Shown here one piece after another: positions 14,556 through 22,823 of a stretch of DNA of 64,000 nt (positions within the stretch are counted from its first letter, which is position 1; every line of letters starts with the position of its first letter). The DNA comes from a virus, in IMG/VR virus record IMGVR_UViG_3300033146_005596, positions 1 through 64,000 of that record. One strand, 5' to 3'. The position numbers and the translations under genes were made by a program. The notes below the pieces were generated by a model, which was given only the letters and a program-made list of their open reading frames with translations, was not told the DNA's origin and searched no databases.

Positions 14556-15380
14556 CTAATCTCCAAACTCTATTTCTTTTCCGGTACCATACATTTCTTT
14601 AGGTCCATTATATCCTCTAATATCTGTAACAACTCCATCAACTGTTATGTTAGTGGTACCATACTCTGGAAAAGGTTTTTCGGCAATAGCACATATTTCT
14701 TGTATTACTGACTCAGCTGTATTTTTAGGTAAAGCCCAACTCATAGAATCATGTACTGACCCAACTAAGTAACCATCAATTTCATTTTCTTGCAAATAAT
14801 TGTCAATAGCAACTATTGCTCGCATTACAAGCACAGACTCAAAGTTTTGAACATCAGTATTAGCTGCTGTATTATTGATTCCAGCAAATATTCTACTATT
14901 CAGCCTATCATCATCTTCACCTTTTAGTATCATTTCAGGAAAATGCCTGAAAGCTCCGTGGTAGCTTCGTATGAAGCCGTCACGTGAAGCGTTGTTTACA
15001 CTCTCTCGTAACCTCCTACCAAAGCCCGGATATGCAGCAAAAAACTTATTCTTCATGTCAATAGCAACAGCTTTTTGTTTTAAGTACAGCAGTGTTTCAG
15101 AGCCTCTTTGATTCTGGGTTAACATATCTAATATGTTTTCAAGGTCATTTTCTTCTATGTATTTGTTACAGTCTTCCATGCTCCAGGTATTGGCCAGAGC
15201 AATCTTAACAAAGGTTGCAGGTTGTGCACCGAACAACAAACCAAAATTACAATTATGTGTTAGATAACCAGCTTTAGTGGAATTCTGTCGTATTATTAAC
15301 TCGTGGTCTTCTACATTCAAGCTATGAACTGACTCTTTGTTTTCTAGCATTTTAATGCTATTTATTTTTACTCTCTTCAT
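14556..15380 (-). CDS. polA: split-intein C-half (43 aa) fused to the C-terminal part of a family A DNA polymerase
   Basis: MKRVKINSIK...VHSLNVEDH...YLTHN|C, then NFGLLFG (half of motif B), GFIRSYHGAFRHFP, AANTDVQ, VHDS (motif C). Confidence 0.9.
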   Translation of the reverse strand: MKRVKINSIKMLENKESVHSLNVEDHELIIRQNSTKAGYLTHNCNFGLLFGAQPATFVKIALANTWSMEDCNKYIEENDLENILDMLTQNQRGSETLLYLKQKAVAIDMKNKFFAAYPGFGRRLRESVNNASRDGFIRSYHGAFRHFPEMILKGEDDDRLNSRIFAGINNTAANTDVQNFESVLVMRAIVAIDNYLQENEIDGYLVGSVHDSMSWALPKNTAESVIQEICAIAEKPFPEYGTTNITVDGVVTDIRGYNGPKEMYGTGKEIEFGD

Positions 15381-15413
15381 ATTATTATAATAAGGTCAAA
15401 AGTAACATTTTTA
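15381..15413 (-). promoter_or_regulatory. class II promoter abutting ATG (leaderless)
   Basis: TAAAAAT-N11-CCTTATTATAATAAT-ATG. Confidence 0.7.
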
Positions 15414-15759
15414 AATTATTTTTATAAATATTTTCAAAATTCAAAAGTTCCACATCACAAAAGTCTACGGGCTTAACCTTGCACATGTCATAGTCAAGTA
15501 TTTCAGTATAGTGGTACAGCTCATAGTCTGTCATATCATAGCCACCTGTTAAAACTTGCACAGGCCTATCCTTTCTTACTTTTTCTATTTTTTTAAGAGC
15601 TCTTTTATACCTTTTATTTTTTATAAGTATTAAGGTATATTTCCCACTGTCTTCTAAAAAGACGAAAAGCCAGTCGTTTACCTTAACAGTAAAACGAGCT
15701 CGCTTTTCAACCTCTTGTGTATGGTCTATTTCAAATTGGCCTATACTGCTTTCTTCCAC
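15385..15759 (-). CDS. hypothetical protein
   Basis: 124-aa ORF, GTG start. Confidence 0.6.
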   Translation of the reverse strand: MEESSIGQFEIDHTQEVEKRARFTVKVNDWLFVFLEDSGKYTLILIKNKRYKRALKKIEKVRKDRPVQVLTGGYDMTDYELYHYTEILDYDMCKVKPVDFCDVELLNFENIYKNNLKMLLLTLL

Positions 15760-15908
15760 TTTATTACATTCCTATTTTCAGACAACCATATAGTCCAAGC
15801 TTTTTGGTCATTTACAATTATGGCCCAGATATTATCCCTTAAATGTTTCCTAGCAAATGGTTCTGTAATAAACTTTTTACCTGGAAGATTTTCAACTAAG
15901 TAATACAT
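15741..15908 (-). CDS. small hypothetical protein, 55 aa (not in ORF track)
   Basis: MYYLVENLPGKKFITEPFARKHLRDNIWAIIVNDQKAWTIWLSENRNVIKWKKAV*, SD AAGGGG, ACTTATTT at 15930-15937. Confidence 0.65.
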   Translation of the reverse strand: MYYLVENLPGKKFITEPFARKHLRDNIWAIIVNDQKAWTIWLSENRNVIKWKKAV

Positions 15909-15967
15909 TGTAAGCAATCCCCTTATATTAAATAAGTCTTTATTGCTTTTTAACTTGCATTAGAAAG

Positions 15968-17359
15968 TTAATCGTCTTTTTCTATATCATATACTTTAAA
16001 TATTGGGCCGTTGAACATATAATCCATTCTGGTACCAATTTTGCCAGATGAGTTTTTAAGCACTGATATTTCCATAATATCGTCAAGGAGGTCAGTCTCT
16101 TCTAAATCGCCAAGGTACCTATCTGCATAGAACTTCGGTCTAAAAACAGATAATACTAGTCTTGCCCTTTCTCCTAAAGCAGCAGCATTTTTAATATCAT
16201 TAAACCCACCTCTCAGCTTGTCAATATCCTCAAGGGAAGTAATCTCTGAGCTATCAGCATTTCTGTTAAACTGCACAACCCCAAAAATATGGCAATTTTC
16301 AGATTTTGCTAAAGCATTTAAATCATTAACCGCAATTTCCATCTGGACTGGTACCGAACTACCAGCATTTTGTCCTGACATGAAATCTTTAACTTGTGTT
16401 AATAAGTCAATAAATACTAGCACATAGTCATTACCAGTTCTTTGTTTATACTCACGGATTAGCTGTTCTAACTTTATTAGGTCTAACTTAGGATTATCAA
16501 TTACATAAAAGTTTTCATTATCTTCCAGCTCTTTTCTTTGCTGCTCAACTTTTTTAAGGATAGGTGCTAAGTCCATTCCAGTTTTGTAGAACTCACTGAT
16601 TGGTATTTCAGTACGCATCGCCATTAATCTATCATATGTATCTTCTGAGCTCATTTCTAATGTTACATAAATACAAGGCTGATTCATATTTATAAGAGCA
16701 TTGACTAGGTTTAGAGTATAGGTTGATTTACCAGAACCGGATGAGCCAGATAAAATAGTAATAGCTCCTGGGTATGCGCCTTTAAAAACCTCTTTGTCCA
16801 GCTGCTTATTACCAAAAGTATACCTTTTTCCTAGTTGTCTATCCTCTAATACTTTCTTATATTCAGTACCCCAGTCTTGAATTGATTTTAAGTATTCAGA
16901 TGAGTCTCCATTCATTATTTTAGTGCTATCTGATAAAACTTTTCCAATAGCAGTCTGGTCAATAGTACCATTTTTTTTGGATAGTTCCTTTAAGAAAACT
17001 TGTGCCTGAGCTTTTAAGTTCTCTTTAATTCTAGCAGCTTTCAATGTGCTAACTACATCTTGATATTTAGTACCATCATTGTCCAAAGATACTATTCGGT
17101 CTATTAAAGAAGCTTCCACCTCAAAGTTTATCTCATTAGCTCTTTGTAATAACGATGATGCTGTAATTGGTATATTTTCGTGGTGTAATTGAGCTATCGC
17201 TTCATAAACATCTTTAGGTAATTTATGAATTAATAGTTCTTTATCAATGCCACTATCTGCTGTGTATATTAGTTTTGGATTATTATAAATAAGATGAAGA
17301 AGCCTCATCTCTGCTACTATAATGTAGTCTGTATTATCTCGTATTTGTTCACTGCTCAA
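15968..17359 (-). CDS. dnaB: DnaB-like replicative helicase
   Basis: SGSSGSGKST, VTLEMS, VFIDLL, VQFNR, VLKN; TTG start with SD AAGGAG. Confidence 0.9.
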   Translation of the reverse strand: MSSEQIRDNTDYIIVAEMRLLHLIYNNPKLIYTADSGIDKELLIHKLPKDVYEAIAQLHHENIPITASSLLQRANEINFEVEASLIDRIVSLDNDGTKYQDVVSTLKAARIKENLKAQAQVFLKELSKKNGTIDQTAIGKVLSDSTKIMNGDSSEYLKSIQDWGTEYKKVLEDRQLGKRYTFGNKQLDKEVFKGAYPGAITILSGSSGSGKSTYTLNLVNALINMNQPCIYVTLEMSSEDTYDRLMAMRTEIPISEFYKTGMDLAPILKKVEQQRKELEDNENFYVIDNPKLDLIKLEQLIREYKQRTGNDYVLVFIDLLTQVKDFMSGQNAGSSVPVQMEIAVNDLNALAKSENCHIFGVVQFNRNADSSEITSLEDIDKLRGGFNDIKNAAALGERARLVLSVFRPKFYADRYLGDLEETDLLDDIMEISVLKNSSGKIGTRMDYMFNGPIFKVYDIEKDD

Positions 17360-17376
17360 TTTGTAAATCTCCTTAT

Positions 17377-17410
17377 ATTATTATAATAAGGAGATTTACC
17401 GGATTTCTTA
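17377..17410 (-). promoter_or_regulatory. class II promoter inside a palindrome
   Basis: TAAGAAAT-N11-CCTTATTATAATAAT; AAATCTCCTTAT...ATAAGGAGATTT inverted repeat. Confidence 0.7.
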
Positions 17411-17414
17411 CTTT

Positions 17415-18062
17415 TTATATTAAATTTAATTCCCTTAATTTTCTATTAGCTGCTTCACTCCAAGCCATACGGCCATAAACATTATTAGGCGCAAACTGAA
17501 CCTCTGCTTTACCTTCTACTAAAGAAAAAGGCCTGTTATTTATTAAAGTTGCATACTTAGCTTTCACTCCAAACTCTCTTTTAGAATAAGGTATTTCAAC
17601 ATCTTTGAATGGCCAAGCACCTTCTTTGGTACCAATTAGTTTTCCGCTATTTCCAAAAGGAATAGATAATATTGCATCTTGGTCATACTCTTCACCCAAT
17701 TGCTTTAGCACTTTTTCTAATTCGTTATTGTCATCGCCATCAACAGTAGTATTAACAACCCAAAAAGCAGGTTCCTTAACAGGAATTTCTTCCAGAGCAT
17801 CAGATTTAAGATTTTTCCCCCATTCATAGTCTGGGGGCTTGTAGTTTTCAATATAAAAACCAGATACTTTAGTAACCCCAAAGCCTAACTTTAATAATAG
17901 TCCTTTAAGCTCCTCCTGTTTCTGTCGGTTAGCTGCATAAGTTCTTTCATCTCTCCAAGCAGTTATTGCTCCGCAAGCATGCTTTTCCATAGCTTCAAAA
18001 GCTCGTGATAAACTTGACTCTTTCATTGCTTCTTGGTCTAAAAACCTCTGTCTCAAACTCAT
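17415..18062 (-). CDS. phage protein of ESSLSR type, possibly head-internal
   Basis: MKE|SSLSR, GAITAWR, GFYIE, LGEEYDQDAIL; pattern recalled from T4-like phage hypothetical proteins. Confidence 0.55.
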   Translation of the reverse strand: MSLRQRFLDQEAMKESSLSRAFEAMEKHACGAITAWRDERTYAANRQKQEELKGLLLKLGFGVTKVSGFYIENYKPPDYEWGKNLKSDALEEIPVKEPAFWVVNTTVDGDDNNELEKVLKQLGEEYDQDAILSIPFGNSGKLIGTKEGAWPFKDVEIPYSKREFGVKAKYATLINNRPFSLVEGKAEVQFAPNNVYGRMAWSEAANRKLRELNLI

Positions 18063-18076
18063 AGTATTTTCTCCTT

Positions 18077-18805
18077 TTAGCCAAAGATTGACTTTATATC
18101 AAACTGTTTGCAGTGCTCTAAATAGTTATCCTCAAATTTAAGATAACAGCCATTCAAAGCACAGTTTCTATGCATTAAGTCCTGTAGCGAAACACTAAAA
18201 TTATTTTGATGTATTCCACTTATTGCTACATTTGAAATAAAAATATTACTTTTTCCATAGGCCTGGATTCTCTCTCTAACAAAATCGTCTAAGAAAGATA
18301 GCTGGTAACCAGACTTATAAATTGCTAGTTTATTTTTATCAAATGACTCATCTATAATAAGTAAGTCTGCTTTTTTTAGTATGTTTATTCTATCTGAGTT
18401 ATTGTTTATAAAATCTGGGAGAAGCAAATCAACTAGTCGTTTCATTGTTATATACTCCACAGTATATTTTTGTTTTAAAAGTTTGTGGGCAACCCATGCA
18501 GCAATAGTTGTTTTCTGGGTACCATTCCCACCATAAAAGTATAATGTTTCTGACTTAAACCTCTTATAGTTATCTGTAAACTCAAGTAGTTTAGGTATAT
18601 TCTTATTTGTATCTAAGCCTTTATAGGATTTTTCTAAATCAAACTGAGGTATAAAATTAGAATATGGTATATTTGATTTCCTCATTTTTATTTCTAGCAG
18701 TTGTGATTCACGCCATTTCTTTTTACATACACATTCTTTAACTGTATTCTCATCTATTTTAATAATTCCATTGTTGCATTTGTTACAACTTCTAAAAGCT
18801 ACCAT
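18077..18805 (-). CDS. DnaC/IstB-like helicase loader with N-terminal Zn site (start MVAFRSC)
   Basis: CNKC...ECVC, variant Walker A GGNGTQKT, LLIIDE, ISN; SD AAGGAG before 18805. Confidence 0.8.
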   Translation of the reverse strand: MVAFRSCNKCNNGIIKIDENTVKECVCKKKWRESQLLEIKMRKSNIPYSNFIPQFDLEKSYKGLDTNKNIPKLLEFTDNYKRFKSETLYFYGGNGTQKTTIAAWVAHKLLKQKYTVEYITMKRLVDLLLPDFINNNSDRINILKKADLLIIDESFDKNKLAIYKSGYQLSFLDDFVRERIQAYGKSNIFISNVAISGIHQNNFSVSLQDLMHRNCALNGCYLKFEDNYLEHCKQFDIKSIFG

Positions 18806-18841
18806 TTTGCTATCTCCTTCTATATAACATTTGCGTAAAAT

Positions 18842-18875
18842 GGTGCCGAATAAGCTTTGGCTTAATCCGGCACCC
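18842..18875 (-). terminator. stem-loop downstream of the SSB gene
   Basis: GGTGCCGGATTAAGC-CAAA-GCTTATTCGGCACC followed by ATTTT. Confidence 0.65.
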
Positions 18876-18894
18876 AAAAACAGGAGTCTAATTT

Positions 18895-20163
18895 TTAAAA
18901 CTCTTGGCCACATCTGGGACAAACAAAGTTTAGCTCAATATCAGAAATAGCTCCACAAACTGGACAGGCTGCGGGTGAATTACCCTCAAAATAGTCTATT
19001 CGAGTTTCATCTGCAAATTTGACATTATCTTTTTCAGCTTGAGTCATTTTATCCCAGCCCTTAAGTGCTGAGGTATCAACAGCTGGTGCTGACTCAACTG
19101 GCTTTCTAGTAGGTACTTCCCTAGTTGAGACTTCAGCTTCAGCTGGAGCTTCAGAAGTTGATGTTACTGGTGCAGCGGTACCAACTTCCTCATTTAGCTT
19201 TTGCATTTCTTTAGGCTCATTCTCTTTAGCATTTGCTTCAGACTCCACAGTCTCTGCATCAACAAGTTCCTTGAGCTCTTCCAAGAAATTTGTGCCTAAA
19301 GCAATATCAATTTGGCTAATCTTTTTCTTAAGGCGGTTATACAACTTTGTAGCTTTTGAAAAGCCATAGACTTTTTCAATGTTTACTTTTTTCCAGGAAA
19401 GCTCTTCTTCAGAAAGAGGCCCTTCAACAACATACTGCTTTTTATCCTCTGGAACTTCCTCCATGTGCTTTTCAGCATTGATAACTCTATAAGGATTTTC
19501 TTTAAGTCCTAGCCTTTCAACTCCAACATCATAGTTTTTCCAGTCGCCATAGTACTGAAATAGATTATGAGCGATTGGTCCTAGAAATCCATAAGCAGGT
19601 ACTCCAGTATCTGCGAATACTCTTCCATCAGGAAGTGTGTTGATATTTTTGCTCAAAATCATCAACTGCTTTTTTTCTTTATGCCAATCCATCTGCTCAC
19701 GGTCTATAACGTTAACAATTACAACTTCTTGTCCACCCCAACCTCTATCCCACATTCCTTGGGGAGTTTTGGAACTGAAACCATTCTTTGTTACCATCTT
19801 CAAAATGTCTTTGTGGGTCTTTTCAAGCTTAAGAATCTTTTTACCATCAACCCAGTCCGATTCAGTAACTCTATTAAGTATCTTCCACATGATATGGTCT
19901 ACTGACTGAGGGTCTTCTTTGGTAGGAAAAATATACCTGAACTTTTTACCATTATCCCCAACAATCATAGTTGTTCTAACGGTTCTAGCACAATACTCAT
20001 CTTTATTAGAGTTTGGTGCTCCACTTACAAATCTTAGAATCTTTGTTGTATTTTTTTCAAGCCCTGAATAAAAAATCTCTTCATAACTTCCAGTCTTACC
20101 TGATGATTTAGGCTTGTTCTCTTCCTGCTTTACTTGTGCGACGTACGCTTCAAAATCGTCCAT
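18895..20163 (-). CDS. gp32-like single-stranded DNA-binding protein with C-terminal Zn ribbon
   Basis: KILRFV, IVNVIDRE, YDV, acidic/Pro-rich linker, CPVC...CPRC; replication context. Confidence 0.6.
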   Translation of the reverse strand: MDDFEAYVAQVKQEENKPKSSGKTGSYEEIFYSGLEKNTTKILRFVSGAPNSNKDEYCARTVRTTMIVGDNGKKFRYIFPTKEDPQSVDHIMWKILNRVTESDWVDGKKILKLEKTHKDILKMVTKNGFSSKTPQGMWDRGWGGQEVVIVNVIDREQMDWHKEKKQLMILSKNINTLPDGRVFADTGVPAYGFLGPIAHNLFQYYGDWKNYDVGVERLGLKENPYRVINAEKHMEEVPEDKKQYVVEGPLSEEELSWKKVNIEKVYGFSKATKLYNRLKKKISQIDIALGTNFLEELKELVDAETVESEANAKENEPKEMQKLNEEVGTAAPVTSTSEAPAEAEVSTREVPTRKPVESAPAVDTSALKGWDKMTQAEKDNVKFADETRIDYFEGNSPAACPVCGAISDIELNFVCPRCGQEF

Positions 20164-20276
20164 ACTATTATGGTTCTCCTTGTTCCTATTACTTTCTAAT
20201 AGGTTTTTCTATTGGTGTGTCAAAACTAAAATTATTATAACTTCTATAACTTAATTTTAGTAGCTACTTACTATTA

Positions 20277-20305
20277 TATAATAAGGCGTTTTTCTGTATT
20301 TCTTA
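20277..20305 (-). promoter_or_regulatory. class II promoter
   Basis: TAAGAAAT-N11-CCTTATTATA. Confidence 0.65.
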
Positions 20306-20312
20306 CAAGACC

Positions 20313-22301
20313 TTATAAAATAATTTCTCCATTTACAACCTTCACAACCTGGCAATTATCCGTACCAGTTAAAATATCAATAACTTTTTCCTTATGGGTT
20401 ATCACAATAACTTGTTGAAAGTCCTTTAAATTAGATAATAAGGCGTAAAACTTTTCTGAGTTCTCCATATCAGCTGCTGAATCGATCTCATCCAATACTA
20501 ATATTTCTATGTTAAACATCTTTGCTAGAGAGGCTTGAAAAGCTAGGGATATAAGCTCAGATTCAAACCCAGAAGCATTTGAAACTTTTGCCCATATTCC
20601 ATTATTTAAGGGTGAATATAAGAAATCGATACCTTTCTTATTAGAAGTTAACTTTACTGGAAATGAAGCTTTAACCTCATTGATAAACCTGTTCATAGAG
20701 TTTTCCAGAACAGTACAAGCTTTCATTATTGCAAAGTTTGGTATGGTAATTTCTATAATATTTTTAGCGGTTAACATATCCTCAATTTTACTATCTATCT
20801 CTTTGATTTCCTTTTTCAGTTTTAATACTTCTTTTTTATTTTTTCGCTTGTCCAACAAAATCTTTTTATTAAGCTTCTCATATAGGTTATTCTTTTCAAT
20901 TTTAGCTTGCTCAGTTTTTAAGTCAATACCTTGAACCTCTAATTTTGCTTTAAGCTCTTTTAATTCTTTGGTACCAGAAAATTCAGCCTTTTCCAAGTCT
21001 TTTAAATTCTTTAGCTCTTTTTCTAAAAAAGATAGGTTGTCAGTTACTGATTTTGTAGCTTCAAATATATCTATATTCAATAACTTTTCTTGTGCTTCAA
21101 TCTCTGTTTTTACTTCAGCTATTCTTTTATTTAATGGCTCAATGCTCTCTTCTAAAACTGTTACTTTTTCAATGTTTTTTGTTAAAACATTTATTTTTGC
21201 TGCAGAACTCTTAATATTTACTTCAAACGCAGATATATAGCTTTTCTTTTCAGAAATCAAATCAGCTAAGTTTTCAACAGATTGTTTACATACTGAGCAT
21301 TTACCATCATGTAAAAAGGTCAAATCATTCTTTAAAGTTTTAATATGAGCTTTTGTATTAGCTAGTATTGCTTTTTCATCTTCCTTTTCTGATTTCAGTA
21401 TTTTACTAGAATCAGCATTTTCAAGAGCGTCTAAAACCTGTTGTAGGCTTAATTTGAGGCCTGATTGCTCGGAAGTTTTATTAGAAATAATTAACTGTAC
21501 ATTATTAGCTTTTGAGATTAAGTTGTTGAGCCGATTTGTATTTTCAAATATTTGTTGCTCGAGGCCATCTTTTTTAATTTTATTATTCTCCACATTAGCC
21601 TGATAGTTATATTCTATTTTCTGAGTCTCTAAATCTTTTACTCTCTTTGCTAAACTATTGATGGAAGACTCTAACCTTTTTATTTGTACCTCAGTTTTAA
21701 CATTTTCTAGTATATGCTCCTTAAACTCTAACCCAGCTATATGTTCAGACTTACTAGCAATTTTTATACTATTATCTCTTGTATCTTGTATATCAGAGTT
21801 AAGCTTAGATACTGGGTCTACAAAATTAAAGCTGATTACCTTCTTTAGAAGTTCCCTTCTTTCTGAGGGTGACATATCAGAAATATTTTGTGAGTTCTGA
21901 TGACTAAATATAATTTTATCTATAAAGTTAATATCAATTAGCTGTTTGAGCATTCTCTTAGCTTCTGAATTTTTATATTCTTTTCCTTTATACTTTATAA
22001 ACTTACCGCCACCTCCGGTGCTTGACTTTTCAGGAACAATTCTTGTCCTTATGAGCATTGGCTCATTATGTACTTCTAGCAATAACTCAGATTCACAATA
22101 ATTGGTACCATGTTTTATATACTCTTTATATGAGCCAGATCGTCTGTAGTCTGATAAACACAAAGCAATACCTTGTAAAACTGTACTTTTACCTGAGCCA
22201 TTCCTGCCTATTATTAAAGTAAATAAATTCTTATCTAGCTCAATTTCAGCATGGTCAATTCGCCCAAAGTTTGTTAATGTTATCTTATTTAATCTCAGCA
22301 T
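20313..22301 (-). CDS. sbcC: SbcC/Rad50 (gp46-like) ATPase
   Basis: GRNGSGKST, coiled coil with CSVC hook, ASGFE signature, LVLDEIDSAAD, ITH. Confidence 0.92.
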   Translation of the reverse strand: MLRLNKITLTNFGRIDHAEIELDKNLFTLIIGRNGSGKSTVLQGIALCLSDYRRSGSYKEYIKHGTNYCESELLLEVHNEPMLIRTRIVPEKSSTGGGGKFIKYKGKEYKNSEAKRMLKQLIDINFIDKIIFSHQNSQNISDMSPSERRELLKKVISFNFVDPVSKLNSDIQDTRDNSIKIASKSEHIAGLEFKEHILENVKTEVQIKRLESSINSLAKRVKDLETQKIEYNYQANVENNKIKKDGLEQQIFENTNRLNNLISKANNVQLIISNKTSEQSGLKLSLQQVLDALENADSSKILKSEKEDEKAILANTKAHIKTLKNDLTFLHDGKCSVCKQSVENLADLISEKKSYISAFEVNIKSSAAKINVLTKNIEKVTVLEESIEPLNKRIAEVKTEIEAQEKLLNIDIFEATKSVTDNLSFLEKELKNLKDLEKAEFSGTKELKELKAKLEVQGIDLKTEQAKIEKNNLYEKLNKKILLDKRKNKKEVLKLKKEIKEIDSKIEDMLTAKNIIEITIPNFAIMKACTVLENSMNRFINEVKASFPVKLTSNKKGIDFLYSPLNNGIWAKVSNASGFESELISLAFQASLAKMFNIEILVLDEIDSAADMENSEKFYALLSNLKDFQQVIVITHKEKVIDILTGTDNCQVVKVVNGEIIL

Positions 22302-22325
22302 AACTATTTATATCTCCTATACTAC

Positions 22326-22397
22326 TATAATAAGGTGGAAAACAAGATTTTTAATTTATTTTGTTAAAAAGTATATGTTTCACCTTATTATAATAAT
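22326..22397. promoter_or_regulatory. divergent pair of class II promoters
   Basis: - strand 22326-22353 TAAAAAT-N11-CCTTATTATA; + strand 22365-22397 TAAAAAG-N11-CCTTATTATAATAAT directly before ATG. Confidence 0.7.
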
Positions 22398-22823
22398 ATG
22401 ATAACGATAAAAAAAGAAAAGAAAAACAGGCCTATTACTGAGCAAGAGTTTAATATTCTTAAAGAGACTAAACCATTTAAGGACTTAAGAAAAAATGCAA
22501 AGCAATGTTTTCCAGTAACAGCTAATACAGAAGTATTGACAGATATTGGGTATATTAATCTAGCACAAATTATTGATAAAATTGATACATCTTGGCTTGG
22601 TTCAGCTAAGGATTTTATAAAGATTATTGGCCGTGATGGTAAACCAAAAAAAGTATTAGGTACTATCAAAGAGGATAACCACTATATAATAGAGTTTAGT
22701 CTTGCAAACGGAGATATACTCAGATATTCTTGGGCTCATTTATGCCCTATTATTAGAGATGATGTTGAAATGTTGGTACCAGCAATTGATGTTCAAAGTA
22801 CAGATGAGTTCTTAGAATTTTAG
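22398..22823 (+). CDS. polA: 36-aa PolA fingers fragment fused to a split-intein N-half (105 aa)
   Basis: ...KDLRKNAKQ|CFPVTANTEVLTDIG (block A)...LRYSWAH (block B)...AIDVQSTDEF; RxxxK supplies the first half of motif B. Confidence 0.88.
   Translation: MITIKKEKKNRPITEQEFNILKETKPFKDLRKNAKQCFPVTANTEVLTDIGYINLAQIIDKIDTSWLGSAKDFIKIIGRDGKPKKVLGTIKEDNHYIIEFSLANGDILRYSWAHLCPIIRDDVEMLVPAIDVQSTDEFLEF

Follow-up and report, generated by a model that had tools for sequence, protein, structure and literature searches.

Naturally split class 1 inteins whose two halves are encoded by dispersed genes have been described in the DnaE of cyanobacteria and in the PolB of Nanoarchaeum equitans (Dassa et al. 2009, PMC2677866). 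The same source deals with the 'fractured genes' of metagenomic phages, which include gp41-1, NrdJ-1, IMPDH-1 and others, and the jumbo phage MIJ3 carries a split PolB intein together with an HNH gene (PMC6892783). Polymerases divided without any ligation are also on record: PhiKZ has a non-covalent two-gene B-family polymerase that is cut inside a lineage-specific insertion (PMC13648687), and cyanophages have intein-free split T7-like polymerases (bioRxiv 10.1101/325100). DNA polymerase I itself appears only in a list of bacterial proteins with inteins (PMC4760082), and our full-text search of the published literature found neither a split intein in a family A polymerase nor a clasp made of a dead intein. 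Here, we examine the family A DNA polymerase of the phage represented by IMG/VR virus record IMGVR_UViG_3300033146_005596 (126,585 bp), the first 64 kb of which (64,000 nucleotides (nt), about 32% G+C) form the stretch that we analysed and that we will call the window. This enzyme, the only DNA polymerase detectable in the record, is encoded as three scattered genes, located at about 15 kb (minus strand), 22 kb (plus strand) and 96 kb (plus strand) of the record. What appears to be new is the host enzyme and the combination in it, over three dispersed genes with matched promoters, of a class 1 split intein that is probably live and, about 25 residues away, a clasp that is probably dead.

The pieces and their parts are the following, where Int-N and Int-C stand for the putative N- and C-terminal halves of the intein and aa for amino acids:

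22398..22823, plus strand: gene of the middle piece, 141 aa, with the presumed clasp head, the N-extein and Int-N.
22398..22505, plus strand: residues 1-36 of the middle piece, made of the basic head MITIKKEKKNR and then the approach to the O-helix, ending in LRKNAKQ, the first half of motif B.
22506..22820, plus strand: Int-N, 105 aa, with Cys1, block A CFPVTANTEVLT, block B YSWAH (two thirds along) and an acidic C-terminal end.
14556..15380, minus strand: gene of the C piece, 274 aa, with Int-C and the C-extein.
15252..15380, minus strand: Int-C, 43 aa, with a block F-like VHSLNVEDHELII and block G GYLTHN.
14559..15251, minus strand: C-extein, 231 aa, with Cys+1, the rest of motif B (CNFGLLFG), the fingers, and the palm with motif C VHDS.
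96233..98254 of the record, outside the window, plus strand: N piece, 673 aa, with the exonuclease, the thumb, motif A and the DxH helix.

As in the DnaE and N. equitans PolB systems, an essential DNA polymerase would here be made from separate loci, with an Int-N of about 100 aa and an Int-C of about 35-45 aa divided at the canonical split site, a Cys at positions 1 and +1, an insertion in a catalytic motif and no recognisable homing endonuclease between the halves. In contrast to those two cellular systems, the host protein here belongs to polymerase family A, it is encoded by a phage, and its N-extein is only 36 residues long owing to a second cut some 25 residues upstream. With the fractured genes and with MIJ3, the locus shares a phage replication gene cut by a split intein, and the terminase gene of the same record, to which we return below, is apparently split in the classical manner. 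The fractured genes are described as having adjacent halves with a free-standing homing endonuclease gene between them, whereas 7,017 bp separate the genes of Int-N and Int-C here; the two are on opposite strands, and the six replication and repair genes of the interval include no recognisable endonuclease, a layout that corresponds to the late 'uncoupled' stage of Dassa's model (PMC2677866). The likeness to PhiKZ is that distant genes would encode polymerase parts forming one enzyme without ligation. The cut differs: in the present family A enzyme it falls after motif A and before motif B, in a beta module of about 60 residues with a faint intein likeness, and the portion of the PhiKZ family B description that we draw on mentions no intein-like module (PMC13648687).

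The first-pass annotation of the window had described the two open reading frames (ORFs) as we find them (141 and 274 aa, with Cys37 encoded from 22506) and had held that the polymerase came in at least three pieces, its N-terminal part being absent from the window. A search of the rest of the genome for a PolA N-fragment ending after motif A/DxH bears this out, since the 673-aa ORF was found in the same record, some 73 kb further downstream. When the whole 126.6-kb record is searched with PF00476, exactly two places respond, namely an N part at 97475-98164, within a 678-aa open frame (57.5 bits), and the C piece (37.7-39.7 bits). On its own, the latter passes the 34.3-bit cut-off of Pfam DNA_pol_A with 39.7 bits (E 3.7e-10), the match covering positions 234-356 of the 381 in the profile, and it also matches solved Pol I chains in the PDB (E 6.8e-6). 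The N piece carries the motifs DLETSG (exonuclease), DYSGLQLR (motif A) and DIHSRTGFQVF, which are followed by about 50 residues and a stop before motif B; its 3'-5' exonuclease domain is recorded by a precomputed PF01612 match of the 673-aa protein (P0004). On the profile of PHROG 17, the N piece occupies positions 652-1048 and the C piece positions 1067-1227, the match of the latter beginning exactly at residue 43, and the approximately 18 positions left uncovered between them would be supplied by the 36-residue stub of the middle piece.

Family A polymerases are recognised by a motif A of the form D-Y-S-x-x-E/Q-L-R, a motif B of the form R-x-x-x-K-x-x-x-F-x-x-x-Y/F-G and a motif C of the form H-D-E/S. 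Motif A is found in the 673-aa piece and motif C is VHDS in the C piece, while motif B is divided into RKNAKQ and CNFGLLFG and is complete only after joining. The joined motif would have a Phe at the position of Tyr766 in Klenow, as in most of the clade. Joining at the RNA level was considered and rejected: no Rfam family, hence no group I/II intron, reached its gathering score in the window or in the surroundings of the N-piece gene, and it is further countered by the fact that each of the three pieces has its own start, stop and promoter.

Taken alone, the 141-aa protein has no match in Pfam or PHROGs, and its best single-sequence hit in the PDB has an E-value of 0.62. Single-sequence tools are nearly blind to the two halves, so the intein call rests on comparative evidence. 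The central piece of this evidence is P0052, a protein of 425 aa in which the head, the stub, a contiguous 152-residue insert at AKx/CNFG and the C-extein form one chain. The middle piece is collinear with its residues 4-138 (BLASTP E 8e-11) and the C piece with its residues 143-378 (E 1e-33), and this end-to-end mapping indicates that the pair of genes in the window corresponds to a gene of that kind cut in two. Other arrangements exist at the same intein site, since P0065 is a full-length polymerase with a contiguous insert there and P0013 and P0021 are N-fragments extending past R..AK to a terminal Int-N, so that full-length, two-piece and split C-piece forms are all represented. The Int-C of the window can be aligned both to the corresponding part of other split pieces and to contiguous mini-inteins. 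The Int-N of the window is 22-36% identical to four Int-N or mini-intein sequences from the same polymerase site (alignment A4), and the profile of these five Int-N, the window's included, finds the solved inteins Pho RadA (6.5e-5) and Pab PolC (2e-4) and a bacterial intein-like domain (9.6e-4). Finally, when the AlphaFold model of P0052 (mean predicted local distance difference test (pLDDT) 59) is compared with the PDB by Foldseek, all of the 42 rows shown are inteins or intein-like, among them the 2lwy intein-like domain (8.4e-7), gp41-1 (3e-6), Npu DnaE (7.5e-6) and AceL NrdHF, with target-normalised TM scores of 0.33-0.68.

At four key positions, the residues expected of a class 1 intein are in place. 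Cys37 directly follows RKNAKQ and aligns with Cys1 of four related inteins (alignments A4 and A7); in block B, S-W-A-H aligns with the T-P-D-H or T-L-D-H of relatives, the His column being invariant in A4; and block G, GYLTHN/C, has the penultimate His, the terminal Asn and Cys+1, identically so in P0002, a relative of the C piece. Block F, which in class 1 inteins has conserved acidic and His positions, contains the DH pair here, with Ser at a position that is Asp in many inteins and Cys in most relatives. The proportions of the halves (105 and 43 aa), collinear with the contiguous intein, are those of the usual split site. Of the charge pattern that had been read from the sequence, the acidic end of Int-N stands (net charge -5 in the last 35 aa, -7 over the whole Int-N), and a basic Int-C holds only weakly (+2). 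Unsplit relatives natively carry a Cys at +1 (AKACNFS, AKGCNFS), so a ligated motif B would look natural. With the collinearity to P0052, the Int-N profile matches and these splicing residues, the split intein that the first-pass annotation had proposed gains support: a class 1 split intein that is probably live sits at AKQ/CNFG, where ligation would make motif B whole again.

Neither the C piece nor the middle piece has a tblastn match in 50,697 phage records; the N piece matches 1085 of these, all below 60% identity and none reaching at least 80% query coverage, the 30 listed being 23-25% identical. Scans of IMG/VR with the C piece, the middle piece and P0088 returned no relative, nor did a scan of metagenome contigs with the C-piece alignment. 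A word-based protein search gave no relative of the middle piece and a single one of the C piece, P0002, from a second metagenomic contig, which is 78% identical, has the same length and keeps Int-C and the junction. When the C piece was run with HMMER against the full set of 1.84 billion cluster representatives, 312 proteins came up at E <= 0.001, the best 150 of which were sorted by script: 93 were long (>345 aa), 33 were short with the conserved head first and an uninterrupted motif B, 16 (the window's own included) were short with an Int-C-like start ending in Asn or Gln before Cys/Ser/Thr-(x)-NFG, and eight were truncated or unclear. Putative split-intein C-pieces at this polymerase site are fairly common in metagenomes.

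The clade has inteins at another site of its family A polymerases as well, immediately ahead of the PN(I/L)QN motif: P0172 begins with an Int-C that ends in VHN before CSAPNIQQ, and the large insert of P0100 ends in IIKN before CQNIPSHG. In the record under study, but outside the window, the terminase large-subunit gene (G000:C1:86067-90930, minus strand) is apparently cut by a second split intein, with a 519-aa N-half that has an Int-N-like end, a 631-aa gene in between, and a 455-aa C-half starting with about 37 residues that end in ITHN before SPEF. Its Int-N is not detectably similar to that of the polymerase (best E 0.81), and the two Int-C are 30% identical over 40 residues (E 0.034).

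The junction between the N piece and the middle piece has another history. The six closest relatives of the 673-aa piece (among 31 other proteins returned; 691-710 aa, 31-37% identical in alignment A2) have the same type of tail; among the aligned relatives, P0013 and P0021 have a true Int-N further downstream, and the proteins of 880-915 aa are unsplit. Eleven IMG/VR loci (L003-L013) match the N piece up to query residue 670, and the same type of tail could be read in L003-L011. In ten of the eleven there is no C-fragment within 10 kb. Whole-record searches of five loci found one in three records and none in two fragmentary records, and the distances in the three are the following:

Relative record of 305.8 kb, rated 100% complete: N and C parts about 208 kb apart.
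Relative record of 170.6 kb: N and C parts about 40 kb apart.
Relative record of 284.7 kb: N and C parts about 4 kb apart.

In each of these three (the two of 285-306 kb being rated 96-100% complete), PF00476 finds one N-frame and one C-frame, and the C-fragments have the same head as the middle piece of the window and no intein. More generally, this head aligns with the N-termini of 16 other C-fragments, 15 of them intein-free and the last being P0052, according to the pattern MLKI.K....R.IT.EEF..LK..PF...RQ.AK. Only the first 36 columns of alignment A6 were used here, and alignment A8 was left aside, because both misplaced Int-N against polymerase sequence. Since the relatives share the tail, the head and the intein-free C-fragments, their comparison shows that the first junction is an old, conserved and intein-free break, and that the phage of the window has an additional split intein inside a C-fragment that is a single protein elsewhere.

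The shape of this older break can be read from unsplit polymerases. DxH and the Arg of motif B are usually about 32 residues apart; among 79 long relatives, this spacing is 31-57 in 71 and 66-98 in the other eight. Six of these eight, aligned with the tails and with the window's head (alignment A10), have tail and head contiguous through a linker of a few residues, so the cut lies in a loop of a small beta-rich module in the fingers, of which the head is the last strand. A profile of this module has one notable match in the PDB, a weak one, to the NrdJ-1 split intein (E 0.025), with an alignment that spans block B, the natural split site and the start of Int-C. An earlier placement of the tail, as block A plus the end of an Int-N, came from a MAFFT alignment and was dropped; the profile comparisons place it from just before block B to the split site. 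The first-pass annotation had noted that the first junction lacks splicing residues, and this extends to all that we aligned: seven tails, six contiguous modules and 17 heads contain no block A, no conserved nucleophile at position 1, no block B His and no His-Asn followed by a nucleophile.

We also predicted the complex of the head (residues 1-36) with the tail (61 residues). It scored 0.50, the best control reaching 0.02, and the runs agreed in at least 94% of contacts with a partner pLDDT of at least 74, which was rated as weak support. The mark applied is reached by 58 of 80 solved complexes and by two of 110 mismatched pairs, scores at or below 0.60 accounting for seven of the 80 and for both mismatches; custom alignments were used for our pair, so these calibration counts hold only roughly. 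We favour, with fair confidence, a non-covalent completion of the beta module by head and tail. As to its derivation from a dead split intein, we are evenly divided.

One further relative, L015, bears on how such breaks may arise. Its polymerase N- and C-fragments are adjacent, with a 195-aa ORF exactly between them (L015:8293-8880, plus strand) that matches no Pfam family and repeats a GW..G..-type motif three times; it may be a remnant of the mobile element behind the first break. The layout is what would be expected soon after a mobile insertion, and the ORF cannot be called an endonuclease.

The expression of the pieces offers a further connection between the two intein halves. As the first-pass annotation had it, the N-extein has its own promoter and ATG, and a similar site precedes the C piece:

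22364..22391, plus strand: promoter-like site of the middle piece, TTAAAA and TATTAT with a 16-nt spacer, 7 nt ahead of the ATG.
15387..15414, minus strand: promoter-like site of the C piece, TTAAAA and TATTAT with a 16-nt spacer, 7 nt ahead of the ATG.

The 19 bases ACCTTATTATAATAATATG, up to and including the start codon, are identical in both genes (22382-22400 at the middle piece). They belong to a promoter family of the record, composed of TTAAAA(A), about 13 nt and CCTTATTATAATAATATA, usually with GGAGA immediately after, which has 12 copies in the 126.6 kb when up to 3 mismatches are allowed: seven in the window, at 15396, 17392, 22336, 22382, 42141, 42422 and 44763, and five more elsewhere in the record. 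Only in the two copies of the intein halves does the motif continue directly into the ATG, with no GGAGA Shine-Dalgarno sequence; after the other 10 comes a ribosome-binding sequence of the GGAGA type or, in one case, no obvious one. The gene of the N piece has a related promoter with a Shine-Dalgarno sequence. The mRNAs of the two intein halves would be matched and probably leaderless.

We consider it likely, on balance, that the polymerase is built from three separately transcribed genes, with protein splicing joining the second and third pieces and a non-covalent clasp holding the first. Piece 1 (673 aa) would bring the exonuclease, the thumb, motif A, the DxH helix and a beta-rich tail of about 45 residues; piece 2 (141 aa) a short basic strand, about 25 residues leading into the O-helix and the 105-residue N-intein; and piece 3 (274 aa) the 43-residue C-intein, the rest of motif B, the fingers and motif C. 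To judge from the sequences, the acidic Int-N and the Int-C would first associate and fold as a Hint domain, and class 1 trans-splicing would proceed through Cys1, the block B His, the terminal His-Asn and Cys+1. The product would be a C-fragment of 267 residues in which RKNAKQ is joined to CNFGLLFG as an intact motif B. In a second step, of which we are less sure, the spliced C-fragment would bind piece 1 without any covalent bond, its N-terminal strand completing the small beta module of the piece 1 tail, a module that may well be what is left, shrunken and without catalysis, of an older split intein that was divided at the canonical position. The identical ATG-fused promoters would give both halves matched, probably leaderless, expression.

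It is tempting to read all of this jointly, although we hold such a reading to be rather unlikely as a whole. The fingertip of the polymerase would have been invaded twice by split inteins, the older of which became a dead clasp while the younger is live; the 141-residue protein would be an adaptor that both docks and ligates; the identical promoters would set the stoichiometry; and splicing through Cys1 and Cys+1, responding for instance to redox conditions, could gate polymerase activity and the onset of replication.

Several observations weigh against the proposed assembly. Both splicing and binding are steps that we infer. When intein hidden Markov models (HMMs) were run on both halves, recognition was partial: the 141-aa protein reaches TIGR01445 (intein_Nterm) only below threshold (E 0.0078, 17.2 bits against a cut-off of 24.5), the Pfam intein models are silent on both halves, and of six relatives only P0013 attains PF14890, also below threshold (27.7 bits against 35.8). 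The model of the middle piece alone is unusable (pLDDT 52), so the Hint fold is seen only for P0052, in a mediocre model. Many class 1 inteins have an Asp at the block F position that is Ser here, and activity could be reduced. No relative of the 141-aa piece was found in our searches, and the three-piece layout is documented in this record only, whose completeness is put at 43% by CheckV, such that a second polymerase gene or C-fragment is possible. Dead intein-like clasps are common in this polymerase clade, and a second dead clasp is conceivable. At the first junction, the intein ancestry is marginal, the module aligning with the polymerase intein in hhalign with E 0.0015, a probability of 17% and 35 columns, and the tails alone with E 0.018, 2.5% and 14 columns; in addition, a weak pass of the complex prediction is more often wrong than right unless the pairing was likely beforehand. 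Lastly, sigma-70-like sites occur at chance level in this AT-rich region (36 found, 36.9 expected).

Some of these points can be turned into other explanations, the most serious of which is that both breaks are non-covalent. The halves meeting at AKQ/CNFG would then fold together without splicing, giving a three-chain enzyme whose motif B extends across a chain break. Such an enzyme would fit with a clade that already has a dead intein-like clasp at its first junction, with the Ser at the block F position, which is usually Asp, and with the poor scores of the halves against curated intein HMMs. But none of Cys1, the block B His, His-Asn and Cys+1 is missing, those of the C piece being conserved in the 78%-identical P0002, whereas the dead module of the first junction has lost its splicing residues in every sequence examined; moreover, an O-helix left unjoined would place chain ends and a Hint domain of about 150 residues beside the nucleotide-binding residues of motif B. 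We regard this explanation as unlikely. Much the same residues speak against the opposite view, that the first junction is covalent as well, through an atypical intein or some other ligation chemistry. The tail does resemble part of an intein, and Thr is frequent at the block B position; yet there is no equivalent of the position 1 nucleophile, the block B His is replaced, the module is devoid of block A and of blocks F and G, and the head has neither a His-Asn nor any Cys/Ser/Thr junction conserved among the relatives. The contiguous versions in unsplit polymerases further mean that the module is kept in the mature protein, and we give this view hardly any credence.

It could also be that the three genes are decaying relics, and that the unsequenced part of the genome encodes the functional polymerase, or else an unsplit C-fragment as partner of the 673-aa piece, in favour of which is the 43% completeness of the record. 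Against this, all three frames are open, of full length and led by promoters, and another metagenomic contig has a C piece that is 78% identical and agrees in length and junction. Furthermore, the two relative records of 96-100% completeness have only one N-frame and one C-frame for PF00476, and the middle piece shares the head of the relatives' C-fragments, so the spliced product is the very partner to be expected for piece 1. Decay seems to us quite improbable, although not to the extent of a covalent first junction, and splicing at motif B combined with a clasp at the first junction is the assembly that we retain.

The interval between the two intein-half genes has a gene content of its own, which is context outside the polymerase:

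15385..22301, minus strand: six intervening genes of 124-662 aa, plus one ORF of 58 aa.

These genes encode an unknown protein of 124 aa, a DnaB-like helicase, an S-AdoMet-lyase-like protein, a DnaC/IstB-like loader, an unknown protein of 422 aa with a zinc ribbon, and an SbcC-like protein. The six genes and the lack of a recognisable homing endonuclease agree with what had been annotated from the sequence: no homing-endonuclease family was found among the intervening ORFs in Pfam or PHROGs, two of these ORFs being without any family. The lyase-like protein (17415-18062, minus strand; 215 aa), which matches the S-adenosylmethionine lyase family PF23780 (E 7.3e-8), lies within the replication module and is possibly anti-restriction. 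The 422-aa protein (18895-20163, minus strand) has no family match; it has an acidic low-complexity stretch and a C-terminal Cys4 zinc ribbon, its gene shares 28 nt with the start of the DnaC-like gene, and it may serve the phage as single-strand DNA-binding protein or as a primase-like one.

Protein ligation relies mainly on split inteins, and new natural pairs are sought. Together with no fewer than 15 other cluster representatives that have one at this site, the intein of the window would constitute a family in a host protein for which we found no printed one, and its AKQ/CNF junction falls within a motif that is the most thoroughly studied of the most thoroughly studied polymerase family. 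With about 25 residues between them, a live split intein and one that is probably dead would be a natural before-and-after pair, connecting a selfish element to a structural clasp. Such pieces are easily missed in annotation or labelled as fragments, as illustrated by the 141-aa gene, which here matches no family at all. For the biology of the phage, this organisation would mean that an essential replicase can persist as three genes scattered over 80 kb with co-ordinated promoters.

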